DNA of 64,000 nt from an uncultured Clostridia bacterium. GTDB lineage: Bacteria > Bacillota > Clostridia > Oscillospirales > CAG-272. The number at the start of each line of letters is the position of its first letter. Positions within the stretch are counted from its first letter, which is position 1. The translations under genes and the position numbers were made by a program. The stretch spans positions 83,428 through 147,427 of the forward strand of contig CALWJX010000001.1 of assembly GCA_944381085.1 (NCBI GenBank). The letters run 5' to 3'. Below the pieces are notes generated by a model, which saw only the letters and a list, made by a program, of their open reading frames with translations, made no database searches and had not been told where the DNA came from. Shown in pieces: positions 1,443 to 35,067 of the stretch.

Positions 1443-2798
1443 ATGCTTTTTTCCTTTCAAGACTATGTATTTGATTCCGATAGGTTAATTATTTATAATA
1501 TATCCGAGAGCAAAGAGTTTATTGATGTTTTAAAATTAAAATTTGATATTGAAGAAAAAAATAAAGCTGTTTTAGCCGAACTAATATCCAATAAATCGGA
1601 AAATATGCGTATGGATAAAATTGCAATTAACAGAGCAGGCATTTGTTTGACGTATAATTGTAATTTGAGATGCGATTATTGCAGTAATTCCTCCGGCGAT
1701 AATGATACAAATATACTTACAATCGAAGATGTTCAGGTATACATAAAAGACATTATCAAAAAAAGTATAATAAGCAGACTTATAAATAAAAAAATCAAAC
1801 CATTAAATATTTATTTTACTGGAGGGGGAGAGCCTACTTTTAGGTGGGATTTATTCAGAGAGTCGGTTTTATTTATAAAAGAAGAGTGCACGAAAAATAA
1901 TATACCATTGTTTCTCGGTTTAACAACGAACGGCGTTTTGAATGATGAACAGATTGGCTTTATTAGTGACAACGTTGATCATATAATGATATCCTATGAT
2001 GGTTTGCCGGAATTACAGAATAAAAACAGGAAATCGGCAAACCAACAGTGTACAAATGAAATTGTGGAAAATACCATAAAAAGATTATCTGATAAAAAAA
2101 TATCAATGAATGTAAGAACCACTGTTTGGGAAGACGACTATTTTAAATTACGTAGAATGTATGACCATGTTTTTTCATTGGTGGGTGATAACCCGAATGC
2201 GAAGTGGAGTGTTTATCCGACTTTTTATGAGGGTCGTGCATTGGAGAATTTAAAAAATCATGGTAAGACCAATAAAAGTTTTTTATATTATTATATTTCA
2301 TTATTGGATTATATTATTTTGGAGAAAGGCAAGGATAAGTTGAATACTGTCGAAGTCCCATTGTATAATAACGAAATCAGTGAAATCTTTTGCGGAGAGT
2401 ACAGATGCAATAATCCATGGTTACTTCCGGACAAATCAATTGTAACTTGTATAGAGTCATGTAAAGGAAATCAAACAGTAATAGGAAAAATCAATGAAGG
2501 CAAAGTAGAATATTATCATAAATATAATGATAAATTGCTTGAAATAATTCAGCAGAAGTTTGTTGAATGTCGGGAGTGTATTGCATACAATTTTTGTAAA
2601 GGAGGATGTCCCATTTGGGAATTGAGAAATATAAATAAAGACAGCGAATTGCCTGAATGTATGGCTCAGAAAGAATACTGGACTTACGTCATTGAAGCTA
2701 TGTTATTGGGTAAGTACAGTTTTGGATGGCGTCTGCAAAAAATCTGCGTACAAAATTATGAACAGCATGAGGCATATAAATTGGTTTTTGATAAATAA
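1443..2798 (+). CDS. Radical SAM enzyme with C-terminal SPASM domain (peptide-modifying maturase type)
   Basis: CNLRCDYC (CX3CX2C) near residue 72. C-terminal CRECIAYNFCKGGC (CX2CX5CX3C) plus further Cys residues is typical of SPASM auxiliary clusters. RBS AAGGAG lies upstream. Confidence 0.9.
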   Translation: MLFSFQDYVFDSDRLIIYNISESKEFIDVLKLKFDIEEKNKAVLAELISNKSENMRMDKIAINRAGICLTYNCNLRCDYCSNSSGDNDTNILTIEDVQVYIKDIIKKSIISRLINKKIKPLNIYFTGGGEPTFRWDLFRESVLFIKEECTKNNIPLFLGLTTNGVLNDEQIGFISDNVDHIMISYDGLPELQNKNRKSANQQCTNEIVENTIKRLSDKKISMNVRTTVWEDDYFKLRRMYDHVFSLVGDNPNAKWSVYPTFYEGRALENLKNHGKTNKSFLYYYISLLDYIILEKGKDKLNTVEVPLYNNEISEIFCGEYRCNNPWLLPDKSIVTCIESCKGNQTVIGKINEGKVEYYHKYNDKLLEIIQQKFVECRECIAYNFCKGGCPIWELRNINKDSELPECMAQKEYWTYVIEAMLLGKYSFGWRLQKICVQNYEQHEAYKLVFDK

Positions 2799-2820
2799 TA
2801 CTGTTTAATGGAGGTGAAAA

Positions 2821-3135
2821 ATGTTACTTAATGGCAAAGTAATTGAGATTGTATCCTATACCTCGGAGAATATAGATGATGACTTAATTATATATAATGA
2901 ATCATTTAAAAAAATTATAATATTAAATCATACTGCAAAGTATGTGTGGAATTTAATAGTTGGCTGTTATAATAATGGTGAAGACATTGAGGTATCCGAT
3001 ATAGTTTCACATATTAAAGATGTATATAATATATCTCAATGTGAAGACGATAACATTTATAATGATGTGGAAGAAACCTTAGATTTGTTTTTTAAAGCGT
3101 CACTTTTGCGATGTTCTGATGAGGAGCATAATTAA
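2821..3135 (+). CDS. PqqD-like protein (candidate RiPP recognition element)
   Basis: 104 aa, directly after the rSAM gene. The pattern IILNHTAKYVWNLI...DIVSHIKDVYNIS...DVEETLDLFFKASLL resembles the PqqD family profile as I recall it. Confidence 0.7.
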   Translation: MLLNGKVIEIVSYTSENIDDDLIIYNESFKKIIILNHTAKYVWNLIVGCYNNGEDIEVSDIVSHIKDVYNISQCEDDNIYNDVEETLDLFFKASLLRCSDEEHN

Positions 3136-3137
3136 GT

Positions 3138-3959
3138 ATGAAATGCTTTTACAGGTATATTGATAATATACAAATTAGTATTATAATAGAAAATGAACTA
3201 TATGAAGAACACAAATTAATTTTTGATTCGCTATTTATAACATTTTTAGATTATCAAAAAAAAGGATTTTTCAATAATTATTTGTATTATATTTATAAAA
3301 GCAAAAATAATTTGAACGAAATAATACATAATTATAAAATAAGTGATTCGGCAGATAATGATTGGATTTTTTCGCTGATAAATGATTTGGAAAACTTTTA
3401 TGCCGATATATTAAACTGCACTGTGTTGCACGGCTCATGCATACAGATTGAAGGAAAAAATATATTATTGATAGGCGAAAGATGGTCGGGAAAGACAACA
3501 TTGACACAATATTTAACAATAGACATGAAGTGTGGATTTGTCAGCGACGACTGTATTTATCTTTTAAATAATATGCTTATTGGCTTTGGAATGCCGTTGC
3601 CTGTACGCGGTGAAAAAATAGATAATACATATAAAGATTTTTTTATTGGCGCAACGGTAGATTCTGACGGTACAAATCGCATTCTTTACGCTCCTCCGAA
3701 TATAGTTGAAAGAGTTTTTTCTGTCGACTCGGTAATATTCTCTAAATATGTTGAAAGTAAAAACGCAAATATAATTAAGTTGAAATCGGGAGAAGCACTT
3801 GAAAGATTAATAAGAAATGTTCGTTCAAAAAGTACAATGAGTACTTTATTTAATGATATGGTAAGAATATCTAAATTATCAGATTGTTATGTTATGCAAT
3901 ACCCGAGTTGCAATATCGCTTATGAAATGATTTTAGGAGTTATTTTTGATGAAAAATAG
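3138..3959 (+). CDS. HPr kinase/phosphorylase-like P-loop protein
   Basis: LHGSCIQIEGKNILLIGERWSGKTTLTQYL...GFVSDDCIYL parallels the HprK core (HG..v...G.gvLi.G.SG.GKS....L...G..lvaDD). Confidence 0.6.
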   Translation: MKCFYRYIDNIQISIIIENELYEEHKLIFDSLFITFLDYQKKGFFNNYLYYIYKSKNNLNEIIHNYKISDSADNDWIFSLINDLENFYADILNCTVLHGSCIQIEGKNILLIGERWSGKTTLTQYLTIDMKCGFVSDDCIYLLNNMLIGFGMPLPVRGEKIDNTYKDFFIGATVDSDGTNRILYAPPNIVERVFSVDSVIFSKYVESKNANIIKLKSGEALERLIRNVRSKSTMSTLFNDMVRISKLSDCYVMQYPSCNIAYEMILGVIFDEK

Positions 3960-5730
3960 TTTTAAAAAATGGAAAAATTTGACGTGGCTATGCCGCCCCT
4001 ATTGGAAATATGGCAAGGTTTACGTTATTTTATCCTTGTTTTTTGTTGTTATAATGTCGCCTCTTGATGAAATGCTATATGTTTATTCGCCTGAAATAAT
4101 CGTAAGATCTCTGAATGAAGGTCGTTCTTTTTCGTATCTTGTAGTTGTCGCTTTGATAATAGCAGGCGCTAATTTTATAAAAAGTATACCAAGGATGATC
4201 TGTAGTCCGTATTTCACTAAAAAACAAACCGAGATTAACATGAAAGTAAAACGCAACATATATGTAAAGGCGATGGAGATAGACTACAAATATGTGGATT
4301 CTCCCGAATATTACAATGAGTATGCCTGGGCTATGAACGAGTATGTACAGCAGACAAACCAAGCGTTCAGTTTTTCAAAGCGTTTTCTTTCGGCTCTTTT
4401 CAGTATTATAACTCTTTTTTCAATTGTTATGGTGATAGGTCCGTGGCTTATTGTGATAGAGATAATACAGTTGATTTTACAGAAGCTTTTGCTTGCAAGA
4501 AGAAACAAGATTGATATTTGTAAGAAAAACGAAACAGTTCCGGTGGAACGGCGTCTTTCGTATTTTCACAGACTGTTTTATCTTAAAGAGTATTCGGCGG
4601 ATATAAAGACCACGCCTTTAAAGCGATTTGCCTTTGACGGATATGACAAGTCGGGTAAAGAGCAGGTAGATATAAATACCAAGTATGAGAAAAAAGGCGC
4701 GGTTTGTTATATCACTCAGGAATTTCTTTTTATTGTCACCGAGTTTGTTTTGACCTTATATCTTGTACATAGCATTATTGAAGGCAACATTGTGGACGCC
4801 GCTCTGTATATAACCATGAATCTTTCGTTTTACAGGCTTGATTCAAATCTTTACAATCTGATACAGTTGATGGAGGAAGCCAACAATATCTCTATGAACG
4901 CGGATAAAATAAGAGAATTTTTCGATATAAAGTCCAACATTGAGACCAAAAGCACAGACGTACAAATAACCGAGATACATGACCCGTTCGCGGTGCGGTT
5001 TAAAAATGTCGGCTTCTCATATGAAAACTCTGATTTTGCGATTTCGGATTTGAACCTTGATATAAAACCCGGAGAAAAAATCGCCATTGTGGGAGAAAAC
5101 GGAGCCGGGAAATCCACTTTTGTCAAGCTTTTGATGAGGCTGTATGACGTTACGGACGGAGATATTCTTATAAACGGCATTTCAATAAAGGATTATGATG
5201 TGGAACTGTTGCGGCAGCACGTGGGAGTCGCCTTTCAGAACACTAATGTTTATGCCATGAGTTTTGCGGACAATGTATCGCTGTTCAACAAGATATCAGA
5301 GGAAGAGCTTGAGAGAATTTCAAAGGAATACGAATTGGATTCCATTCTTGAAAAAAACCATGCCGATTTTAATTCGGAGCTGACCAGAGAGTTCAGTCCG
5401 GACGGAATAATCCTTTCGGGCGGAGAAGTGCAGAAGATCGCGCTTGCCAGACTTATGACAAAAAAATGGGGACTGCTTTTGCTCGATGAGCCTTCCTCAG
5501 CGCTTGACCCCTTGGCGGAATACAAGCTGAGTAAGCTTATTTTGAGCACCGCCAACCGGGCTACCACTATAATAGTCGCTCACAGACTGTCCACGATACG
5601 GGATGCCGACAGAATAATAGTAATGGAGCGCGGAAAGCTTGAGGAATGCGGCACTCACGATGAACTGATGGAAAAACACGGAAAGTATTATGAAATGTTT
5701 ACCAAACAGGCGGAAAATTATATAAATTAA
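3949..5730 (+). CDS. ABC transporter, fused permease/ATP-binding exporter with no N-terminal peptidase domain
   Basis: N-terminal TM-rich half. Walker A GENGAGKST, signature LSGGEVQK, Walker B LLLLDEPSSALD. ATG 3949 is 9 nt after AGGAG and overlaps the upstream gene. Confidence 0.9.
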   Translation: MKNSFKKWKNLTWLCRPYWKYGKVYVILSLFFVVIMSPLDEMLYVYSPEIIVRSLNEGRSFSYLVVVALIIAGANFIKSIPRMICSPYFTKKQTEINMKVKRNIYVKAMEIDYKYVDSPEYYNEYAWAMNEYVQQTNQAFSFSKRFLSALFSIITLFSIVMVIGPWLIVIEIIQLILQKLLLARRNKIDICKKNETVPVERRLSYFHRLFYLKEYSADIKTTPLKRFAFDGYDKSGKEQVDINTKYEKKGAVCYITQEFLFIVTEFVLTLYLVHSIIEGNIVDAALYITMNLSFYRLDSNLYNLIQLMEEANNISMNADKIREFFDIKSNIETKSTDVQITEIHDPFAVRFKNVGFSYENSDFAISDLNLDIKPGEKIAIVGENGAGKSTFVKLLMRLYDVTDGDILINGISIKDYDVELLRQHVGVAFQNTNVYAMSFADNVSLFNKISEEELERISKEYELDSILEKNHADFNSELTREFSPDGIILSGGEVQKIALARLMTKKWGLLLLDEPSSALDPLAEYKLSKLILSTANRATTIIVAHRLSTIRDADRIIVMERGKLEECGTHDELMEKHGKYYEMFTKQAENYIN

Positions 5731-5844
5731 ACCGATAATTTATTTTGACGTCCGATAATATTGACAAAAGCAGTCATTCTGCAGAACCGACCGAGTATTT
5801 GGGATAAAGTTCATTATGATATGACTGCTTTTTTATGTTTTCAT

Positions 5845-6720
5845 TTACACGCTATGACCGAGTTCCTCATACAGTTTATCTGAAAGCCGGCAGAAATCCT
5901 TTACCGTGAGTTTCTCTCCCCGGATATCCGCGCTGTGCCCGCATGAAGTTATTATTTCCGTGAGCCTTTGCTTTTGTATTTCCGGAAATCCTGTCAAAAG
6001 CGAGTTTGCGAGTGTTTTTCTCCTTTGCTCAAACGCCGCTTTAACCGTTCTGAAAAAGATATCCTCGTTTGAAGGAACGACCGGCTTTTCTTTCCATAGT
6101 TTAATCTGAACCACAGAGGAGTCGACTTTCGGTACCGGCATGAAGTTGTCCGACGTTACGGTGAAAAGAGCGTTTGTCTGTCCGAAATAGTCTATTGCCG
6201 CGGTAATTGCGCCGCAGTTTTTGTTTCCGGCTCCCGCGCATATTCTGTCAGCCACCTCCGACTGAACCATTACCGTAATACTGTCGAACGGCAGCCGGCT
6301 TTCCAAAAGCTTCATAAGTATGGGAGTTGTGATATAATAAGGCAGGTTTGCGCAGACCGAAACCTTTCCCGCGGAAAAATACGGCTTTAAGATTTCCTCA
6401 AGATTTGTTTTCATCACATCGCTGTTTTCGACCCGGACGTTTTTATATCCGTCAAGCGTATAACGCAGTACAGGTATAAGTCCCCCGTCTATTTCAAGGG
6501 CGACAACATTGCGATAACGCGCGGCAAGCTCGCGTGTAAGGCAACCTATGCCGGGACCTATTTCAAGAACGGTTATGTCGGCGTCATCGGAGCAGCAGTA
6601 CGCGATATCCTCGACTGTGCCGTGATTTATAAGAAAATTTTGTCCGAATTCCTTTTTGAATTTCAGTCCGAACATGTCCATGACCTGTTTTATGGTCTTT
6701 GGGTTGCATAGGTCGAGCAT
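5845..6720 (-). CDS. rsmA: 16S rRNA (adenine1518/1519-N6)-dimethyltransferase
   Basis: FGQNFL motif and LEIGPGIGCLT SAM-binding motif. Its start overlaps the upstream stop (TGATG). Confidence 0.95.
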   Translation of the reverse strand: MLDLCNPKTIKQVMDMFGLKFKKEFGQNFLINHGTVEDIAYCCSDDADITVLEIGPGIGCLTRELAARYRNVVALEIDGGLIPVLRYTLDGYKNVRVENSDVMKTNLEEILKPYFSAGKVSVCANLPYYITTPILMKLLESRLPFDSITVMVQSEVADRICAGAGNKNCGAITAAIDYFGQTNALFTVTSDNFMPVPKVDSSVVQIKLWKEKPVVPSNEDIFFRTVKAAFEQRRKTLANSLLTGFPEIQKQRLTEIITSCGHSADIRGEKLTVKDFCRLSDKLYEELGHSV

Positions 6721-9813: not shown

Positions 9814-11079
9814 TCACATATCAGACGCCTGCGGGTCTGTGATGTAACCCGTGAGCGCGGACGCCGCGGCGGTCGCGGGACTTGAGAGGTATATTTTTGA
9901 GGTCACATGTCCCATTCTGCCCACAAAATTCCGGTTTGTGGTTGAGATTGCCACTTCATTTTCGGCGAGTATTCCCATATAGCCTCCTAGACACGGGCCG
10001 CATGTAGGCGTGGAGACCACACACCCGGCGTTTATAAACGTCTCGGCATAACCGAGTCTGATGCAGTCCAGATAAATAGACTGTGTCGCCGGAATTATTA
10101 TGCATCTGACGTCGGGGGCTATGTGTTTGCCTTTGAGAATATCAGCCGCGATTTTCATATCGGAAAGTCTTCCGTTGGTGCAGGAGCCGATTACGCATTG
10201 ATCTATTTTGATGTCTCCAAGCTCGGATGCCTTTTTCGTGTTTTCCGGCAGATGAGGACATGCGACAATAGGCACTATCTTTGAAAGGTCAATGTCGATT
10301 ACCTCGTCGTAATCCGCGTCCGGGTCTGCGCTGTAAACCGTATACGGGTGCGTCATGCGCTCCTTATAAAATTTAAGCGTTATGTCGTCCACCTCAAAAA
10401 TTCCGTTTTTGGCGCCGGCTTCAATCGCCATGTTTGCCATGCACAGGCGGTCGTCCATCGAAAGAGAGGCGAGTCCGTCCCCCGTAAACTCCATGGATTT
10501 GTACAGCGCGCCGTCAACGCCTATCTTGCCGATAATGTAAAGAATAACGTCTTTGCCGGAGCAGAACTTCGGAAGTTTTCCGAAAAGATTGAATTTTATC
10601 GCCGCCGGAACTTTGAACCAAGCCTCTCCGGTAGCCATTCCCGCCGCCATGTCCGTCGAACCCACGCCTGTGGAGAATGCGCCGAGCGCTCCGTAAGTGC
10701 AGGTATGGGAGTCCGCGCCTATAACCACGTCTCCGGGACCGACAAGTCCCTTTTCAGGCAGAAGCGCGTGCTCTATACCCATGTCGCCCACGTCAAAATA
10801 ATTTTTAATGCCGAATGTTTTGGCAAACGCGCGGCACTGCTTTGTCTGCTGCGCGGCTTTGATATCCTTGTTCGGAACAAAGTGGTCCATGACCAGAGAG
10901 ATTTTATTTTTGTCAAAAACCTTGTCAAATCCGAATTTGTTGAATTCGTTTATTGCCACGGGAGATGTAATGTCATTTCCGAGAACCATGTCAAGCTTTG
11001 CCCTTATGAGCTGTCCCTTTTGAACCGATTCCAAGCCGGCGTGCGCGGCAAGGATTTTTTGGGTCATTGTCATTGCCAT
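9814..11079 (-). CDS. leuC: 3-isopropylmalate dehydratase large subunit
   Basis: Aconitase-family motifs [15 protein letters not shown] and IGSCTNGR, 421 aa. Confidence 0.95.
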
Positions 11080-11106: not shown

Positions 11107-12789
11107 TTATTTATTGTTTTTTTCTTTCACGCTTGCGTATCTGCGGTTTATGGCGGAGAAAAGCGCGTTTATGGAGGACGCGATGATGTCGTCATGAACT
11201 CCCGCTCCCCAGACTACGGTTCCGTCGTCAAAGGTTATGCTTACATATGTGACCGCCTTGGAGGATGACCCCGAGGTAAGAGCGTGCTCCTCATATGTGA
11301 GGTTGGAGTAGCTTATACCCAAATGCTGCTTTATAGCGTTGCTTACCGCGTCAAGCCGTCCGTTGCCGGACGCCTTGAGTTCCTTTATCTCGCCGTTTAT
11401 TTCGACTGTCAGGACGACATTTATTCCGGGATTGCGTATGAAGTGATAGTCAACGAGCTTTATCGGAGAATTGATATTTACATAATTGCTTTGGAATACT
11501 TCGAGCACCTGTCCCGGAGTGAGCTCGGCGTGCGCGTGGTCGGAGACGCTTTTGACTTTGTATCCTACCTCTTCTCTCATTTTGGGAGGAAGCACGTATC
11601 CGAATGTATGCTCAAGCAGATATCCTATGCCGCCTTTTCCGGACTGTGAGTTTATTCTTATCACATCGGTTTCGTAAACTCTTCCAACGTCGGTAGGATC
11701 TATGGGAAGATAGGGAACCGTCCAGAAACGGCAGTCCTTTTCCTCACGCCATTTCATACCTTTTGCGATGGCGTCCTGATGAGACCCGGAGAATGCCGCG
11801 AATACAAGCTTGCCGGAATAGGGCTGTCTGTCATATACCTGCATTCTCGTGACTCTTTCGTAAAGGTCGGTGATTTCGGGCATATTCGAGAGGTCAAGTC
11901 CCGGCTCTACTCCCTGAGAATACATATTGAGCGCCAAAGTGATTATATCGACATTGCCCGTGCGCTCGCCGTTTCCGAAAAGCGTGCCTTCTATTCTGTC
12001 GGCGCCCGCGAGCAGACCGAGCTCGGAATCCGCGACGGCGCATCCGCGGTCGTTGTGAGGATGGAGGGAAACAATGACGTTGTCACGGTATTTGAGGTTA
12101 TCGCACATGTACTCTACCTGGTTTGCGTATACGTGAGGCATGGAGAGCTCTACGGTAACGGGGAGGTTGATGATGACTTTTCTGTCCGGAGTCGGCTTCC
12201 ATACATCGAGCACTGCGTTGCAAATCTCAAGCGCGAATTCAGGCTCCGTGCCGGTAAAGGATTCGGGAGAATATTCATATCTGTAGTTTGCTCCGGTTTC
12301 CTCGGCGATTTTATTGAAGAGCTCGGCTCCGTCGGTGGCGATTTTTATTATTTCCTCTTTGGACTTTTTGAAAACCTGCTCGCGCTGAGCTACCGAGGTG
12401 GAGTTGTAAAGGTGAACTATAGCGTTTTTGCAGCCCGAAAGCGCGTCAAAGGTTTTGCGTATTATGTGTTCGCGGCTCTGGGTGAGAACCTGCACCGTGA
12501 CGTCGTCCGGAATCATGTTTTTCTCTATAAGCGTGCGCAAAAATGTGTATTCGGTTTCGGAAGCGGCGGGGAAGCCCACTTCAATTTCCTTAAAGCCTAT
12601 TTTTACAAGCAGATTGAAAAAATCGAGCTTTTCATCAAGGCTCATGGGGATGATGAGAGACTGGTTGCCGTCTCTCAAATCAACGGAGCACCATATGGGC
12701 GCCTTATTTATATAATTCTTCTTTGCCCATTTCATCTCGCACACGGGAGCGGGGAAATACTGACGTGTGTATTTTGACGCGTTTTTCAT
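11107..12789 (-). CDS. leuA: 2-isopropylmalate synthase (long form)
   Basis: DLRDGNQS and HPHNDRGCAVA motifs, C-terminal regulatory domain, 560 aa. Confidence 0.95.
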   Translation of the reverse strand: MKNASKYTRQYFPAPVCEMKWAKKNYINKAPIWCSVDLRDGNQSLIIPMSLDEKLDFFNLLVKIGFKEIEVGFPAASETEYTFLRTLIEKNMIPDDVTVQVLTQSREHIIRKTFDALSGCKNAIVHLYNSTSVAQREQVFKKSKEEIIKIATDGAELFNKIAEETGANYRYEYSPESFTGTEPEFALEICNAVLDVWKPTPDRKVIINLPVTVELSMPHVYANQVEYMCDNLKYRDNVIVSLHPHNDRGCAVADSELGLLAGADRIEGTLFGNGERTGNVDIITLALNMYSQGVEPGLDLSNMPEITDLYERVTRMQVYDRQPYSGKLVFAAFSGSHQDAIAKGMKWREEKDCRFWTVPYLPIDPTDVGRVYETDVIRINSQSGKGGIGYLLEHTFGYVLPPKMREEVGYKVKSVSDHAHAELTPGQVLEVFQSNYVNINSPIKLVDYHFIRNPGINVVLTVEINGEIKELKASGNGRLDAVSNAIKQHLGISYSNLTYEEHALTSGSSSKAVTYVSITFDDGTVVWGAGVHDDIIASSINALFSAINRRYASVKEKNNK

Positions 12790-12915: not shown

Positions 12916-13186
12916 AAAAAATAAGCCCTCATCTCCAAAAAACAGAGACGAAAGCACAATTTCTTCCGCGGTACCACTCCGATTGACAGTAATCCACTCA
13001 ATACGTACATTTAATACGTTTTCTCTTTAACGGGAGAACCCGTCGTTCCTACTCGAAAAAAACTTTCGGTCCGAAGCTCAGGGGAGAGTTCGATATTGCA
13101 CAAGCCTTTGTCTCGCACCGCCCGACAAATCTCTGAAGAACTTTTAAAGAATATCTTATGCCCCGTCATAGCCTTTTGACTTATTA
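12916..13186 (-). promoter_or_regulatory. T-box leader (probably Leu-specific) with intrinsic terminator, upstream of leuACDB
   Basis: Minus strand reads AATCGGAGTGGTACCGCGG (T-box motif, plus-strand 12966-12984). An F-box-like CCGTTA lies upstream of it. AGAGA and GGTGCGA elements are in the Stem I region. The terminator GCTTTCGTCTC/GAGATGAGGGC (12925-12955) is followed by TTATTTTTT. Confidence 0.85.
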
Positions 13187-29222: not shown

Positions 29223-32200
29223 GTGTTTTATTTGAAAATCAGGAAATTGGTTGTGGCGCTTCTTGCGTTTTCGTTTATGCTGTCGGTTTTTGCTCCCGCG
29301 CTGTTTGCCGTAAGCTTTATCGAGACCGAAGAACCCGACGACGCAAGCGTAAGCTTAGGAGGAGACGGGAATAACGCCATGCAGCTCAATCCGTCCGACG
29401 TTGTGGCTGTTCAGTTTTTCACCACGGCGGAGGTGCTTGCGTTGTCGTTCAGTATGCCGAGCTTTAACAATGACAGCGGCTCGGTAACGGTAGCTTTGTT
29501 TGAATTTAATGAGGACTATTTTAACACTGTTGAGGGAGTTGCGGTGGCGGAACATACCTTTGAAAACTTCAAGGACAATTCCGAGCTTACCATTCGTTTT
29601 GATGAGAACGACCCTTTGAGCGCCGGAGAATATTTGCTTGTGCTTTATGACGCGAAGGATGACAATCCAGGCAGCGGAGGAGGAACCGGCATCGGAATCT
29701 GGTACGGAGGAGGACATGAAAGCCAAAGATTTTACAATTCCATGCCTCTGAATATTCTGTATAAAAACCGACCCGAAAAGAATTATGAAATTCCGACGGT
29801 ACCGGAGATAGGAACGGATATAGACATGTCTCCCAAAATGGATTCCGTAATTTATTTTTCCGACCCGGATGAAGCGTCCAAAGCAAGCGCGGGAAACCAG
29901 ACTAAAGTGGAGTATACCGACGGATTTACACGGATTTCCACTTCAGGGGCGGCAAGCGACCCATATGCTTTTGTCGATCTGTCCTCCAAAGGCAGTGTGA
30001 TCGATACCGGTACATACAAGGCGGCGGTCATAAAAATGAGAAAAAGCGAAGGAGCGCCGTCGGCGTTTCAGGTGTTTTTCACAACTTCGGTCACCGGCTT
30101 GTCCGAAGCGGCTTCAATCAAAGCCAATTATAAGGATACGTCGGAGTGGCAATATGTAATTCTTAATTTCGCAACAAACGGTCTGTATACCGGCGAGCTC
30201 AAGTCGCTTCGTTGGGATATATTCCAGAGCACGGAAACCACGGCTTATGTGGATATTGATTATGTGGCTTTGTTTACCTGCGTGGAGGCCGCCGAGTCTT
30301 TTGCGGGGAATGATAATTTTGAAGATTTTGAAGAAACCGGGCAGGGTGGAGATGAAGGTATGGATAATGTCAAAGGCGTCGAAATAAAAGACCCGGATAC
30401 GACTCTTAAGCCGTATTTTGAGGAAAACGGTCAAAGATCTTTTTATGAGACGAGATATACTTATACTATGGATTTTACGGACAGTCTGCAGAATTATTCC
30501 GCGTCAAAGGGGTTCGGTTTTACCTCTATAGGAAATGCCTATATCAGTGAAGAAACGCTCAGATGCAGGGCGTTTACCGGTTTTTCACTGTATTCAAAGG
30601 AGATCTTAGGCGATAAATACGCTTTGACAGACGGAGTTCTTTCCTTTGATATGAATCTTGAGAGCGGCGATGTGACTGTCGGGACGAGGCTTTTGTACCA
30701 GAGCGATGATTTTGAAAAATCGGGTATTTATTTTAGGCTTACAAACGGCAGCGAGATAACCGTATCCGAGAAAAGCTCCGGTTGTGAGGTGACTGTAGAC
30801 GTCGGAAAGGATTTGTCCGGACTTCACTCATATTCGTTTAAGGACTGCCACGACGAAATATTGATTTGCTGCGACGATGAAGTGTTGCTTACTATAAAAT
30901 ATGACAGAACGGCAAAAGAATTTGAAGTCTTTGATTCTTCGGGCAAGTCTCACGGAAAATTTACAAGCGAAATTCTGCCCGAGTGCGGGTATTTTTCGGT
31001 TTCGTTCAACAGAATGAAGGGATATGTCGATAACATATCGTATAACAACAGTGTTATTACACAGAAGAGATTTACACCGGAATATGAGACAGACTACTCG
31101 ACCTGGGTAGCCACGGATGACCTTGACAGGACCACTCCGCTGAACCCGGATGCGGGAGACGCCAAGGAAAAGTATGTGGGGCTGTTTTACTTTATTTTTC
31201 ACTCGGACGATACGACAGGGAAGGTTATCAACGATGTGACGGAGATGTATCTTAACGGAGGGGCGCAGAATGTCACGGATACCTTGTCGTCATTCGCCGG
31301 CAGAAACGGCGCGTATTGGGCGGAGCCGTACTTTGGCTATTATACGAGCAACGACGTTTGGGTTTACAGGAAGCACGCAAGTATGCTGAGCGCCGCCGGA
31401 GTGGACTTTATATTCCTCGATTTGTCTAATAACAAATTTTATACAGAGCAGGTGACCTTGCTGTTTGACACCTGGTTACAGATGAGAAAAGAAGGCATGG
31501 ACACTCCGCAGATTTGTATGATGTTCGGAGATATGCCTTATACCACGCTCAACGGACTTTACACACTGCTCGACCCGATATACAACAATGAAGAATACAA
31601 GGAGCTTCTGTTCTGCTATGAAGGAAAGCCGCTGCTGCTCGGAAATACCGACACTCCCAAATCAAGAGAATGGACAAATTCGACGGGCACCACGCCGCAG
31701 AGTAAGGCGGAATATTTGAATCTGCTTGAGCAGAACCCCGAGGTCAAGGAATTTTATGAGAACGAGTATCAAAGCGTCCTTGAGCGATTCACAGTGCGCA
31801 AATGCTGGGCATGGCAGGCGGGTACGCATGACGGCTATTGGGATTGGCTGCAGGAGTCTCCGCAGGCATTGGGAACAGATTCTGAGGGAAATCCCGAACA
31901 GATTTCGGTAAGTCTCGGTGTTCACGCGCATACAAGCCGCGGCAGAAGCTATGTCAATTCTATGAACAATTACAATAAAGAGGGCGAATACGGTTTCAGG
32001 CTGACTTCAACCCCTTACGGGAAATTCTTGGAGGAACAGTTTGAGTATGCCTTGACTCAGGATGTAGACGTGCTTATGATTACCGGATGGAATGAATGGT
32101 ATGCAGGAGTGCAGTCCACCTCAAATCAGAATCAGACGACAGGTCAGACCCTGACTCCCGGATTTTATATGGTCGATCAGTGCTCTCCGGAATACAGCCG

Positions 32201-33116
32201 TGACGGAGAACCGATGAAGATACGCGACGGCGTGGGATTCGGAGACAACTATTATTATCAGATGGTGTCCTATATCCGTAAGTTCAAGGGTATAGACGAG
32301 GCTCAGAAAACGGTTAACGGCGGTACCGTGAACATGGGCGCTTCGGATATTGACGCTCAGTGGGAGGGTATAGGTCCGGTATTTACCGACGGAGTAAACG
32401 ATATTTCTTTCAGAAGCGAATATTCATGGGCAGGCAAATACCTTTATGTGAACAACACCGCGAGAAACGATATATCGTATGCCAAGATCTCTCAGGACAG
32501 CGAAAACATATATTTCTATGTAAGGACCGCGAACGACATGATAAACGTCGATTCCGAAGACTGGATGAATCTGTTTGTGGACATCGACTCCGACAACAGT
32601 ACCGGTTGGGAAGGTTTTGACTTCCGTATCAACAGCCAAAGAGAAGGAAATAAGACATCGGTGGAAAAATTTGTCGACGGAAAATGGGAATTTGAGTCGG
32701 TCGGGGAAGCAGATATGATTTTGGGTGATCGCAGTATAACCATAAGGGTATCCAAATCGATTTTAGGTGTAGGAAACGGAACCGAGGTTTCGTTCAATTT
32801 CAAGTGGGCGGACAATTCCGTGACCGACGGGGATGTGATGAAGTTCATGGAGCTGGGAGACGCCGCTCCGGATGACAGGTTCGCGTTTGCGTATACCGCA
32901 AACGGACTTGAGGACAACAGAGGAAAAAACGAAGAGAGCACAGGCGCGGAAACCGAGGGCGAAACAGGTACTTCGGATACCGAACCGGTTGACGATATCG
33001 GCGGTCAGAACGGCTGCAACGGGTGCAAATCTTCACTCGGCGCGGGAGTCGCTGCCGTGGCTTCAATCACCGCGGTCGGATGTGTATCGGCAGCCGGAAA
33101 GAAAAGAAAGAAATAA
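29223..33116 (+). CDS. Large secreted/cell-surface protein with GH99-like core and C-terminal hydrophobic anchor
   Basis: Has a signal peptide. The centre reads YWAEPYFGYYTSNDVWVYRKHASMLSAAGVDFIFLD ... ITGWNEWYAG, an endo-alpha-mannosidase-like pattern. The tail reads NGCNGCKSSLGAGVAAVASITAVGCVSAAGKKRKK. Confidence 0.7.
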   Translation: MFYLKIRKLVVALLAFSFMLSVFAPALFAVSFIETEEPDDASVSLGGDGNNAMQLNPSDVVAVQFFTTAEVLALSFSMPSFNNDSGSVTVALFEFNEDYFNTVEGVAVAEHTFENFKDNSELTIRFDENDPLSAGEYLLVLYDAKDDNPGSGGGTGIGIWYGGGHESQRFYNSMPLNILYKNRPEKNYEIPTVPEIGTDIDMSPKMDSVIYFSDPDEASKASAGNQTKVEYTDGFTRISTSGAASDPYAFVDLSSKGSVIDTGTYKAAVIKMRKSEGAPSAFQVFFTTSVTGLSEAASIKANYKDTSEWQYVILNFATNGLYTGELKSLRWDIFQSTETTAYVDIDYVALFTCVEAAESFAGNDNFEDFEETGQGGDEGMDNVKGVEIKDPDTTLKPYFEENGQRSFYETRYTYTMDFTDSLQNYSASKGFGFTSIGNAYISEETLRCRAFTGFSLYSKEILGDKYALTDGVLSFDMNLESGDVTVGTRLLYQSDDFEKSGIYFRLTNGSEITVSEKSSGCEVTVDVGKDLSGLHSYSFKDCHDEILICCDDEVLLTIKYDRTAKEFEVFDSSGKSHGKFTSEILPECGYFSVSFNRMKGYVDNISYNNSVITQKRFTPEYETDYSTWVATDDLDRTTPLNPDAGDAKEKYVGLFYFIFHSDDTTGKVINDVTEMYLNGGAQNVTDTLSSFAGRNGAYWAEPYFGYYTSNDVWVYRKHASMLSAAGVDFIFLDLSNNKFYTEQVTLLFDTWLQMRKEGMDTPQICMMFGDMPYTTLNGLYTLLDPIYNNEEYKELLFCYEGKPLLLGNTDTPKSREWTNSTGTTPQSKAEYLNLLEQNPEVKEFYENEYQSVLERFTVRKCWAWQAGTHDGYWDWLQESPQALGTDSEGNPEQISVSLGVHAHTSRGRSYVNSMNNYNKEGEYGFRLTSTPYGKFLEEQFEYALTQDVDVLMITGWNEWYAGVQSTSNQNQTTGQTLTPGFYMVDQCSPEYSRDGEPMKIRDGVGFGDNYYYQMVSYIRKFKGIDEAQKTVNGGTVNMGASDIDAQWEGIGPVFTDGVNDISFRSEYSWAGKYLYVNNTARNDISYAKISQDSENIYFYVRTANDMINVDSEDWMNLFVDIDSDNSTGWEGFDFRINSQREGNKTSVEKFVDGKWEFESVGEADMILGDRSITIRVSKSILGVGNGTEVSFNFKWADNSVTDGDVMKFMELGDAAPDDRFAFAYTANGLEDNRGKNEESTGAETEGETGTSDTEPVDDIGGQNGCNGCKSSLGAGVAAVASITAVGCVSAAGKKRKK

Positions 33117-33172: not shown

Positions 33173-33200
33173 CCGGCCCGGTTTTCCGAGCCGGTTTTTT
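33173..33200 (+). terminator. Intrinsic terminator
   Basis: CCGGCCCGG / CCGAGCCGG stem with one mismatch, TTTT loop, then TTTTTT. Confidence 0.75.
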
Positions 33201-33362
33201 CATGCGGAGCTACAACATATTGTCAAATATAAAAGCTTTAAAGGGCAATGTAAAGCCTGACTGTGCTGACAACTTACAGTATATGATGAATCACAAGGTC
33301 AAAAAATGTAATTTTGATTAAAAAAGTTTTACCGGATTTTAGTTTTAAGTTTAAAAATGATA

Positions 33363-33391
33363 TTGACAAAAAAAGAATTAAATGGTATAAT
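33363..33391 (+). promoter_or_regulatory. Consensus sigma-A promoter
   Basis: TTGACA (33363-33368), 17 nt, extended -10 TGgTATAAT (TATAAT at 33386-33391). Confidence 0.75.
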
Positions 33392-33401
33392 TTATAGCGT
33401 T

Positions 33402-33494
33402 GAAAAGGGAGTAGCCGACGGTATACCGCATTCGTGAGCGTCATTACGGAACTTTTTTCAGTTCTCGCTCCGGATTTAAACGGCAAGACTTTTG
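33402..33494 (+). ncRNA. Candidate yybP-ykoY-like (Mn2+) riboswitch aptamer
   Basis: Three blocks appear in the order I remember from the L. lactis Mn2+ riboswitch: AAAAGGGAGTAGCC (33403-33416), ATTCGTGAGCG...CGCTCCGG, and GGCAAGACTTTT (33482-33493). AAAAG/CTTTT can close P1. Confidence 0.5.
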
Positions 33495-33531
33495 CTTGCA
33501 CGACCGTGCGGACAAGGGTCTGTTTTTTTGT
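33486..33531 (+). terminator. Leader terminator (expression platform)
   Basis: AGAC..CTTGCAC GACC GTGCGGACAAG..GTCT hairpin followed by GTTTTTTTG. Its 5' arm overlaps the putative P1 3' strand. Confidence 0.6.
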
Positions 33532-33573
33532 ATACTTTAAGTGAGCGACTCTGTGAAAAAGGAGTGATAATTT

Positions 33574-34695
33574 TTGGATTTTTTCAGCGACTTGTTTTCC
33601 AACGTCCCCAATCTTTTCGGTGAAGGCGGCTGGAAATATGTGGTCATGTGGATTATCGGAGGCGTTCTGATTTTTCTTGCCATCAAGAAAAAAATGGAGC
33701 CTACATTGCTTCTTCCAATGGGATTCGGAGCCATTCTGGTGAACATCCCCATGTCGGGAGCGGTGGAAGCCGACGGCGCGATAAGTATTCTTTACAACGC
33801 GGGTATCGCCAATGAGCTTTTTCCTCTGCTGCTGTTCGTGGGAATCGGCGCGATGATAGATTTCGGTCCCCTGCTCTCAAACCCGAAGCTTATGATATTC
33901 GGCGCGGCGGCTCAGTTCGGTATATTCTTTACGCTGAGTCTGGCGTCGCTGTTCGGATTTGATCTGAATGACGCCGCGTCTATTTCGATAATCGGCGCCG
34001 CGGACGGACCCACCTCAATTTTTGTCGCCAATCTGTTGAATTCAAACTATAAGGGCGCGATAATGGTAGCGGCGTATTCTTACATGGCGCTGGTTCCGAT
34101 TATTCAGCCCCCGGTAATCAAGGCGATAACAAGCAAGAAAGAAAGACGTATTAAAATGCCGTACAAACCGGCAAACGTATCAAAGCTGACAAGAATCCTT
34201 TTCCCGATATTCATTACCGTTATTGTGGGAATCGTGTCTCCCAAGAGCGTTACTCTGGTCGGTTTTCTGATGTTCGGAAACCTCATTCGCGAATGCGGCG
34301 TGCTTGACAACCTCTCTGAAACCGCGCAGAATGTACTTGCTAATCTGATAACCATATTCCTCGGTATTTCCATATCCCTGAATCTTCAGGCTGAACAGTT
34401 TATCAAGGTAGAAACCTTTATAATTCTCGGCTTGGGACTTATCGCGTTTATTTTCGATACTTTCGGCGGCGTTATGGTTGCGAAATTCATAAATCTTTTC
34501 CTGAAGAACAAGATAAATCCCATGATAGGCGCGGCGGGAATATCCGCGTTCCCAATGTCGGCGCGTGTTGTTCATAAGATAGGACTTGAAGAGGACAACC
34601 AGAACTTTTTGCTTATGCATACCATAGGAGTAAATGTTTCCGGTCAGATAGCCTCGGTTATCGCGGGCGGACTTATACTCAATATGGTTATGTAA
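33574..34695 (+). CDS. Sodium-ion-translocating decarboxylase beta subunit (OadB/GcdB/MmdB family)
   Basis: 373 aa, polytopic. GAADGPTSIF and family-typical N-terminus. TTG start after AAAAGGAG. Confidence 0.9.
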   Translation: MDFFSDLFSNVPNLFGEGGWKYVVMWIIGGVLIFLAIKKKMEPTLLLPMGFGAILVNIPMSGAVEADGAISILYNAGIANELFPLLLFVGIGAMIDFGPLLSNPKLMIFGAAAQFGIFFTLSLASLFGFDLNDAASISIIGAADGPTSIFVANLLNSNYKGAIMVAAYSYMALVPIIQPPVIKAITSKKERRIKMPYKPANVSKLTRILFPIFITVIVGIVSPKSVTLVGFLMFGNLIRECGVLDNLSETAQNVLANLITIFLGISISLNLQAEQFIKVETFIILGLGLIAFIFDTFGGVMVAKFINLFLKNKINPMIGAAGISAFPMSARVVHKIGLEEDNQNFLLMHTIGVNVSGQIASVIAGGLILNMVM

Positions 34696-34719
34696 GTCCA
34701 AGGGGAGGTGTGTTGAAAT

Positions 34720-34998
34720 ATGAATAATGAATTTGTGTTTTTGTCGGAAACAGAAGCAAATACAAACTCCGAAACAGAGTCGGGATCACTTGAAAACGGC
34801 TCTCAGGAGTTGACAGAGGAAATTACCGATGCTACGATGAATTTCAGAATTGACGGTCAGGCTTTTGTCGACAGTCTTCCTATTATGGGAAAAGGAATGC
34901 TCGGAATTTTTCTCGTCACCGCGGTTATCGTAATAACTGTGGCTATACTCAATAAAGTGACCGGCAGAAAGAAAAAAAGCGAAAACAATGAGAGCTGA
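34720..34998 (+). CDS. OadG-like small membrane subunit
   Basis: 92 aa with a single TM (GMLGIFLVTAVIVITVAILNKV), immediately downstream of the beta subunit. Confidence 0.6.
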   Translation: MNNEFVFLSETEANTNSETESGSLENGSQELTEEITDATMNFRIDGQAFVDSLPIMGKGMLGIFLVTAVIVITVAILNKVTGRKKKSENNES

Positions 34999-35067
34999 CC
35001 CTTTCGTTATGAGCTTTGAATATATCAGTTTGTTTTCTGTCGGGAAAAAATTACATTAATAAAAAGA

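Follow-up and report, generated by a model that had tools for sequence, protein, structure and literature searches.

The subject of this report is the leader RNA of an oadB gene in a 64,000-nucleotide (nt) stretch of DNA from an uncultured Clostridia bacterium (contig CALWJX010000001.1, assembly GCA_944381085.1), to which we refer as the window and in whose own coordinates the positions below are given. The leader is a riboswitch that belongs to the yybP-ykoY Mn2+ family, as a member of its three-way-junction subtype, for which the binding of a ligand is expected by analogy with a validated streptococcal relative, and it is placed before the gene for a membrane subunit of a carboxybiotin-decarboxylase Na+ pump that is the second, divergent paralogue (beta2) of this subunit. 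Membership in the yybP-ykoY family is assigned because of the architecture of the RNA, its pocket nucleotides and its link to the family through the validated streptococcal class, and not because of a match to RF00080, the Rfam model of the family. An earlier note on this DNA, made from the sequence alone, had proposed a metal riboswitch of the yybP-ykoY type at this location; the proposal is supported by the pocket nucleotides, by covariation and by the likeness to streptococcal three-way-junction elements.

The oadB leader and its conservation

The elements of the transcription unit are the following.

33363-33391 (+): sigma-70 promoter, with -35 TTGACA at 33363-33368, a 17-nt spacer, TG at 33383-84 (extended -10) and TATAAT at 33386-33391
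33402-33494 (+): aptamer, three-way-junction yybP-ykoY subtype; covariance model R1, 76.4 bits, E~1e-16; SSRC10 (RF02617), 28.9 bits, E 9e-4
33403-33407 (+): 5' strand AAAAG of the switch helix P1.1, partner CUUUU at 33489-33493; 92.5% of cells paired over 40 distinct leaders
33408-33413 (+): 5' strand GGAGUA of L1, the metal-pocket loop; G-G-G-A-G-U-A invariant in 41/41 leaders
33414-33417 (+): P1.2 5' strand GCCG, partner CGGC at 33481-33484; compensatory changes at 4/4 pairs
33419-33428 (+): P2 hairpin CGG-UAUA-CCG; double changes at 3/4 pairs; present in the minimum free energy (MFE) fold
33430-33475 (+): P3 arm, with P3.1 at 33430-40/33466-75 (U33435 bulged) and P3.2 at 33448-53/33460-65
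33441-33447 (+): L3 bulge UCAUUAC, 7 nt; C-G|U-C-A-N-Y-A-C at least 90% conserved
33476-33480 (+): junction UUAAA (U-N-AAA in place of P4), ~90% conserved
33485-33493 (+): L1 3' strand AAGA (33485-88) and P1.1 3' strand CUUUU (33489-93); A-G-A-C in 40/41 leaders
33486-33529 (+): intrinsic terminator, stem 33486-33521, U7 tract 33523-29; the 5' arm consists of the L1-3'/P1.1-3' nucleotides
33560-33564 (+): AGGAG as the ribosome-binding site, at a distance of 9 nt from the TTG start, assigned by reading the sequence
33574-34695 (+): oadB, beta2 paralogue, carboxybiotin-decarboxylase/Na+-pump membrane subunit, 373 amino acids (aa), TTG start; Pfam OAD_beta PF03977, 3e-151
34720-34998 (+): small protein of 92 aa with a single transmembrane (TM) helix, OadG-like at the family level, core FVDSLPIMGKGMLGIFLV; co-transcribed with oadB

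Relatives of the leader were sought in a comparison set of 80 loci that encode OadB relatives of 70-85% identity, all from uncultured Clostridia/Oscillospiraceae/Acutalibacteraceae, about half of which have GGGAGTAG...CAAGAC upstream. The model R1 was built on 29 oadB leaders, with a hand-specified structure and realignment by Infernal; this procedure replaced RNAalifold on a plain MAFFT alignment, which had recovered P1 alone because the variable helices were out of register. R1 matches a single site in the window (33402-33494) and 40 of the 80 loci, for a total of 41 leaders, every one of them just upstream of oadB and on the oadB strand, and no further matches were found elsewhere in the 662 kb searched. 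The paired cells amount to 85.4%, as compared with 37-47% when the partners are slid, a control that provides the fairer comparison for a fitted alignment that is biased towards its model. Compensatory double changes occur at 21 of the 27 pairs with every helix represented (including 8 of 10 pairs of P3.1 and 4 of 4 of P3.2), and the observed score was reached by none of 500 shuffles. The nucleotides that are conserved are the unpaired ones, namely GGGAGUA (41/41), the L3 bulge motif, UUAAA and A-G-A-C. Two contigs, L047 with the label 'Methanobrevibacter sp.' and L100 with the label 'Bacteroidales', encode Clostridia-type beta2 oadB at 70% identity or more, and the second also carries the riboswitch; the labels are likely to reflect mis-binning of metagenome-assembled genomes.

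In the MFE fold of the window leader, a closing helix, a small hairpin and a long arm that is interrupted by a bulge of 7 nt are followed by a strong terminator. The internal loop L1 that typifies the family, with an GGGGAGUAG-type 5' strand and a 3' A-G-A, is present at 33407-33414 and 33486-33489. At L3, the metal-coordinating C-A, which corresponds to C40/A41 of the L. lactis riboswitch (PMC6649816), and the flanking C-G receptor pair are represented by C, G, C and A in 40 of 40 leaders. The helices meet in a three-way junction from which P4 is absent, rather than in the four-way junction that is typical of the yybP-ykoY family. Four orthologous oadB leaders (L006, L024, L032 and L053) fold with a real P4 hairpin, i.e. 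as four-way junctions, and one of these (L024) has the same gene order downstream as the window. Within one orthologous leader family, forms with and without P4 thus change into each other.

Other claims of the earlier note about this region met with different outcomes. The promoter that it had called perfect agrees with the sigma-70 consensus at 12 of 12 positions and has an extended -10, and from an inferred transcription start at ~33398 the leader measures ~176 nt up to the TTG at 33574, as compared with the ~175 nt that had been estimated. The note's strings can be located at 33403-16 (AAAAGGGAGTAGCC), 33430-40 (ATTCGTGAGCG), 33466-73 (CGCTCCGG) and 33483-94 (GGCAAGACTTTT), but its middle block, ATTCGTGAG, which had been taken to match a conserved block of the L. 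lactis element, occurs in none of the relatives and is the 5' strand of P3.1, the alignment to the L. lactis element having been out of register. As only unpaired pocket nucleotides are conserved, and ATTCGTGAG is absent from relatives, this block is a chance resemblance; L3 is in fact formed by the bulge UCAUUAC at 33441-33447.

A terminator that starts at GACUUUU and overlaps P1.1 was found in 39 of the 41 leaders, and the ON-switch expression platform is therefore conserved; the earlier note had read the ON-switch logic from the overlap between the 5' arm of the terminator and the 3' strand of P1. Another oadB leader (L026, 3878-4001) has the aptamer and is without a terminator; the 3' strand CUUUU of its P1.1 could pair with the ribosome-binding region AAAGGAA, 38 nt before the start, which suggests a translational version of the switch.

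The sequence of the window is present in chicken-gut metagenomes, and RNA contigs that were assembled from five metatranscriptomes of two studies span only 33416-35008. These contigs start at 33416-33427, none of them lies over the 500 nt upstream of the leader, and two (33416-33571 and 33427-33577) join the aptamer, the terminator and the start of oadB in the same RNA. The observations fit a single transcript for the leader, oadB and the small open reading frame (ORF) that follows it, with read-through in the gut.

Relation to Rfam families and known riboswitch classes

All 4227 Rfam families were scanned against the whole window at gathering scores and against the 261-nt stretch 33340-33600 at E<=10. 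RF00080, the check that the earlier note had put forward, and whose failure it had named as a refutation, did not match the leader at either setting, and the models for the Na+-I (DUF1646) and Li+ (nhaA-I) riboswitches, which the note had named as alternatives, gave no match to 33340-33600 at E<=10. The sole meaningful Rfam match of the leader was to RF02617, or 'SSRC10', at a score below the gathering score of 56 for that family. The failure of RF00080 is itself uninformative, as this model stays below threshold on streptococcal three-way-junction elements: on a short stretch containing the element of S. uberis it reaches only 27.6 bits where the gathering score is 45, and at gathering thresholds five streptococcal leaders (L083, L110, L124, L127 and L187) are called as SSRC10, with 68-116 bits, and never as RF00080. 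The same aptamer type before other genes receives no Rfam call whatever at these thresholds. As a positive control, RF00080 finds the leader of E. coli mntP (40.9 bits) in the same search in which an oadB leader was missed; R1, though trained on oadB leaders alone, gives 55-73 bits for the streptococcal leaders and no match to the E. coli mntP leader. RF00080 does not cover the P4-less subtype. The mntP leader (L200, 211-307) also falls below the gathering score of RF00080, and its alignment stops before the 3' strand of P1.

The family SSRC10 was described as a small RNA (sRNA) of S. pyogenes that lies immediately before a 'putative calcium transporter' (PMC3675131), a type of locus in which the mgtA riboswitch is also found. 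Rfam types it as 'Gene; sRNA' and provides no clan link to RF00080, and pipelines thus label such riboswitches as sRNAs; the ~113-nt SSRC10 RNA probably represents the leader in its terminated form. The mgtA riboswitch of S. pneumoniae is a member of the yybP-ykoY family with a three-way junction, in which P4 is replaced by an invariant U-N-AAA and after which a terminator follows (Martin et al. 2019, PMC6649816). Its L1 is conserved, and both the 3' AGA and the C-A of L3 that serves as metal ligand are invariant; it binds both Mn2+ and Ca2+ and is activated by Mn2+ (PMC6649816).

The window leader is like the mgtA riboswitch in its P1.1/L1/P1.2 arrangement, its short P2, its P3 with a 7-nt L3 bulge, its U-N-AAA and its terminator over P1.1, and GGGAGUAG, UCA and AGA are common to both RNAs. 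It differs in its host, which belongs to gut Clostridia of the Oscillospirales type and not to the streptococci, in the base 5' of AGA, which is mostly A in the oadB leaders and G in streptococci, and in its downstream gene, which encodes an OAD_beta protein where the streptococcal subtype has a PII-type P-type ATPase. Compared with the canonical RF00080 elements (L. lactis yoaB, E. coli mntP and X. oryzae), the window leader lacks both P4 and the RF00080 match, and the canonical targets (MntP, TerC, YybP, UPF0016 and P-type ATPases) include no decarboxylase subunit. The Na+-I (DUF1646) riboswitch is likewise a cation-sensing ON switch that is associated with the same class of Na+-pumping enzyme (White et al. 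2022, PMC9337991), but its fold is unrelated, it senses Na+, and the genes under its control are pycB/oadA and not a beta paralogue. The paper on this Na+ riboswitch was the only one in the searchable literature to mention yybP-ykoY together with oxaloacetate decarboxylase (PMC9337991). No link between yybP-ykoY and oadB was found in the searchable literature, a search that does not extend to the gene-association lists of the founding papers, and the view of the earlier note that OadB is an atypical target is in keeping with this result.

One might argue that the leader senses no ligand at all and serves as a constitutive attenuator or a gene for a small RNA, or that it is a riboswitch for Na+ or Li+, as the sole family that it matches in Rfam has the type sRNA, a match to RF00080 is absent, and the Na+-I (DUF1646) riboswitch is known to target oxaloacetate decarboxylase genes (PMC9337991). 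We consider these interpretations to be very improbable. SSRC10 lies directly upstream of a P-type ATPase gene and is built like the validated mgtA riboswitch; all helices of the oadB leader covary around unpaired pocket nucleotides that are invariant; the DUF1646 and nhaA-I models find nothing at E<=10; and in the metatranscriptomes the leader RNA is contiguous with the mRNA.

The beta2 paralogue and its small partner

The product of the window oadB matches TIGR01109 (1e-126, 422.8 bits, with the cut-off at 190.6) and the OadB of Salmonella in PDB entry 6IVA (E 1e-100). Neither a biotinylation motif, nor the RDAHQS motif of OadA-type proteins, nor a carboxyltransferase was found in the 64-kb window, where the only HMGL-like protein is LeuA, and the remark in the earlier note that no gene for a carboxyltransferase or biotin carrier is nearby thus holds across the window. 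Across the 80 loci, the genes that are shared are oadB and the small ORF only, and in nearly all of them the unit is stand-alone. The description of the two genes as an orphan pair is accurate locally, but related genomes contain in addition a complete operon for the gamma, biotin carrier (BCCP), beta and alpha subunits, and in one locus beta2 is itself part of a full operon.

A search with the OadA encoded near one of the riboswitch loci (L065) returned 80 loci, in which the in-operon beta subunit (beta1) was identified by Pfam and tblastn; a biotin carrier is present in 68 of these loci, and in 71 a beta gene is directly upstream of OadA. On the contig that also contains L065, the order of the operon (L201) is OAD_gamma, BCCP, OAD_beta and OadA, and the riboswitch and second oadB follow 2.4 kb further. 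The in-operon beta1 proteins exhibit 44-53% identity (~47%) to the window protein, and beta2 and beta1 form separate clades (distances of 0.21 and 0.24 within, 0.49 between), with beta1 nearer to the Salmonella OadB. Both the beta1 operon and the riboswitch-beta2 unit occur in each of the assemblies JAEDLK, JAFWAC, JAZQYL and URPQ. When R1 was run over the 80 beta1-operon loci, no riboswitch was detected save for the beta2 leader in L201. The riboswitch is placed specifically before beta2, and never before beta1.

At another locus (L072), beta2 and the small ORF are located in one operon behind the C-terminus of OadA, a 108-aa protein and BCCP, an arrangement which argues that beta2 can be a working decarboxylase subunit. 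The 108-aa protein (378-704) lies between OadA and BCCP in the gamma/delta position and has an N-terminal TM helix, a C-terminal ...AAMIMAIVADKMGKP... segment and no Pfam match; the operon thus has two different small membrane proteins.

The residues D203, Y229, N373, G377, S382, R389, N412 and S419, together with an E40-type glutamate, are conserved in beta2 (Salmonella numbering; roles of the residues are from Xu et al. 2020, PMC7274780). In the window protein, D144, S324, N354 and S361 correspond to D203, S382, N412 and S419, all four of which are invariant in 81 of 81 beta2 sequences, and E40 is aligned as KKMEP. D203, S382 and N412 make up the two Na+ sites, and neither clade, beta1 or beta2, shows any variation at the Na+-site and catalytic residues. 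There are 31 columns with near-fixed differences between beta2 and the combination of beta1 and Salmonella, many of which map to helices of the ion path: no beta2 sequence has Arg at the position of Arg304 (the window protein has Asn246 there), Asn311 is retained in the window but replaced by Lys in 54 of 81 beta2 sequences, and other substitutions include N392H, S378A, V384F and V416Q. In the Salmonella enzyme, Arg304 and Asn311 both line the Na+ cavity, and the R304A and N311A changes raise the half-maximal Na+ concentration ~3-fold, a moderate impairment (PMC7274780). With its Na+-site and catalytic residues kept and its cavity substituted, beta2 looks active, with a remodelled cation cavity. 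A riboswitch-specific subfamily of OadB was considered and rejected, as the within-group distances equal the between-group distances and no residue discriminates between the groups.

The window pair is like OadB/OadG of Salmonella (PDB 6IVA/6IWW, PMC7274780) in its OAD_beta fold family, its E40 and Na+-site residues and the adjacency of a small single-TM partner. It differs from the Salmonella pair in sequence (~52% identity to OadB over the core), in the lack of a ~55-aa insertion at residues 63-118, and in being encoded apart from alpha and BCCP. Members of the small-ORF family have in common the core FxDxLPIMGKGMLGIFIV and a TM helix, and the family was found in at least 44 of 78 cases by a strict regular expression that undercounts it. 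Weak matches to Pfam OAD_gamma (PF04277) were obtained for 10 of 19 family members (best 4e-5), and none to Pfam (OAD_gamma included), NCBIfam or PDB for the window ORF. The reading of the two genes as an OadB/OadG-like pair in the earlier note is therefore sound for OadB and, at the level of the family, for OadG, but it is not reflected in an OAD_gamma match of the window ORF. Relative to OadG, the TM helix is C-terminal and is followed by a short basic tail only, without the C-terminal tail that binds alpha.

The earlier note had also raised the idea that the membrane pair has a metal- or cation-related role independent of a decarboxylase; beta2 and the small subunit might then be a stand-alone transporter of Mn2+ or some other cation, induced by the riboswitch for export. 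This possibility draws on the stand-alone nature of the unit in nearly all of the 80 loci, on the fact that all other well-understood targets of the riboswitch family are exporters, on the 31 clade-specific substitutions (with Arg304 lost, Asn311 often Lys and N392 changed to His) and on the missing alpha-binding tail of the small partner. The conserved residues give it no support, as Glu40, which is critical for the decarboxylation of carboxybiotin, is invariant in 81 of 81 beta2 sequences along with Asp203, Ser382, Asn412 and Ser419; moreover, R304A and N311A impair the Salmonella enzyme only moderately (PMC7274780), and the L072 operon joins beta2 and the small ORF with OadA and BCCP. On balance, we regard a decarboxylase-free exporter as quite unlikely.

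Regulon, proposed mechanism and neighbouring genes

A search pattern for the P4-less aptamer, derived from oadB and streptococcal sequences, detected at least 120 matching stretches, and the downstream genes were listed for 119 matches. The matches listed come from Streptococcus, Oscillospiraceae, Lachnospiraceae, Erysipelotrichaceae, Chloroflexota and Acidobacteriota, and the first downstream genes among these 119 are as follows.

PII-type P-type ATPase: at least 34
oadB: at least 31
Na_Ca_ex family: at least 23
Na/Pi cotransporter with PhoU: at least 10
CitMHS: at least 2; CNNM/CorC: at least 2; SPFH: at least 2; TerC: at least 1

MntP does not occur among the 119, no pocket nucleotides specific to a target class were found, and among the matches listed two target classes occur in the same assembly in one case. 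With both searches combined, the riboswitch-oadB unit is present in at least 57 distinct species-level assemblies of gut Clostridia. At one locus (L005), the riboswitch (2120-2205) is followed by genes for PHO4/PiT (2271-3320), DUF47/PhoU_div (3353-3973) and oadB (3998-5113), the last two of which are 25 nt apart; this looks like a riboswitch-controlled operon for a phosphate transporter and a Na+ pump.

The explanation that we favour, with moderate confidence, is that a metal riboswitch releases the beta2 membrane module when metal is in excess, and so sustains Na+ extrusion. The transcript that starts at ~33398 carries a P4-less aptamer of the yybP-ykoY family, and the terminator at 33486-33529 competes with it for the 3' strand of P1.1 and L1. 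By the known mechanism of the family, a divalent metal would dock L1 on L3 and hold P1.1 closed, so that the terminator could not form and transcription would read through. By analogy, the ligand is most likely Mn2+, which is favoured because of the invariant context of the N7-donating adenine and the streptococcal data, and Ca2+ is possible. The genes beyond the terminator encode a beta2-type beta subunit and its small OadG-like transmembrane partner. The soluble half of the enzyme (an OadA-type alpha subunit and the biotin carrier) would, to judge by relatives, be encoded elsewhere and outside of the control of the riboswitch, as would the housekeeping gamma-BCCP-beta1-alpha operon in several genomes; since these subunits are not controlled by the switch, the latter would supply the decarboxylase with an alternative membrane module when metal is in excess. 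The weakest step is the last, in which an extra or altered pump would maintain the Na+ gradient that drives the Na_Ca_ex, CNNM, Na/Pi and PiT transporters, which are under the same type of aptamer in related bacteria. Na+ extrusion is proposed as the purpose from two observations only, the sharing of the regulon and the operon at L005.

Several observations count against this explanation in whole or in part. The leader does not match RF00080; 40 of the 80 close beta2 genes have a plain promoter and a short untranslated region with no riboswitch (and no second conserved type of leader was found in these 40 loci); and the beta2 proteins that are controlled by a riboswitch cannot be distinguished in sequence from those that are not, so that metal control is not intrinsic to the function of beta2. 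The metatranscriptomes contribute assembled contigs that might contain DNA, and the affinity of the single validated three-way-junction member of the family is greater for Ca2+ than for Mn2+ (PMC6649816).

The last of these points is a reason to consider that the same RNA and mechanism might serve Ca2+, or Ca2+ plus Mn2+, in a regulon for Ca2+/Na+ homeostasis in which beta2 would energize Na+/Ca2+ exchange. The composition of the regulon among the matches listed, which consists mostly of PII-type (Ca2+-type) P-type ATPases, Na_Ca_ex proteins and phosphate transporters, with the classic Mn exporters nearly missing from the 119 (TerC 1, MntP 0), is what one might expect of such a role. It is a serious alternative, which we nevertheless judge to be unlikely, as Mn2+ is far better than Ca2+ at activating read-through in the streptococcal riboswitch (PMC6649816), the L3 adenine within UCA whose N7 selects for Mn2+ is invariant in all of the leaders, and the regulon was sampled from the matches listed of a pattern that was itself derived from oadB and streptococcal sequences.

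A more speculative proposal, and a rather doubtful one, is that beta2 and its partner are a specialised isoform whose cavity, with Arg304 lost, Lys at 311 in most members, His at 392 and Gln at 416, alters the ions that are pumped or tolerated, and that the riboswitch would bring this isoform in under metal stress, so that decarboxylation directly drives, or stays able to drive, the extrusion of Mn2+ or Ca2+. If this were true, beta2 would be a primary divalent-cation exporter of an undescribed kind, and the P4-less subtype would be a master switch for a combined divalent-cation and Na+-cycle regulon of gut anaerobes.

A well-studied family of metal riboswitches is here extended beyond exporters, to the second, divergent paralogue of an energy-coupling Na+ pump subunit. 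The arrangement suggests that a bioenergetic membrane module can be switched between paralogues under metal stress, and would tie divalent-metal stress to the sodium economy of the cell. The P4-less subtype is widespread and no streptococcal curiosity, and its regulon is rich in Na+-coupled transporters; this regulon is invisible to standard annotation, as the subtype escapes RF00080 and the Rfam family closest to it is entered as an sRNA of streptococci. The system offers a concrete and testable approach to the way in which gut anaerobes that run on Na+ gradients deal with an excess of Mn2+ or Ca2+, and beta1 and beta2 are a natural pair of isoforms for dissecting the ion selectivity of decarboxylase pumps.

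A few observations concern genes in the vicinity of these units. A pyruvate kinase-like gene, so recognized by eye (ORF cluster 4, ~470-480 aa, N-terminus MKKTKIICTIGP...MNFSH), lies beside the riboswitch-oadB units of L012, L017, L019, L041, L057 and L065, usually in divergent orientation, and in L053 a cobalamin riboswitch (RF00174, 50.3 bits, 5810-6016) is located ~650 nt downstream of oadB. In the window, an ORF of 1297 aa (29223-33116, +) lies immediately upstream of the oadB promoter and has its own terminator (33178-33194); its product has a signal-like N-terminal segment and a hydrophobic, Gly/Ala-rich C-terminal stretch that ends in KKRKK, and is unrelated to the riboswitch finding. 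The sole element of the window at an Rfam gathering score is a T-box leader (RF00230, 98.8 bits) at 12941-13178 (-), downstream of which are a LeuA-type isopropylmalate synthase gene (11107-12789, -; domains HMGL-like, IPMS_D2 and LeuA_dimer) and then a LeuC-like gene of the aconitase family (9814-11079, -); the T-box is probably Leu-specific and part of a leu operon.

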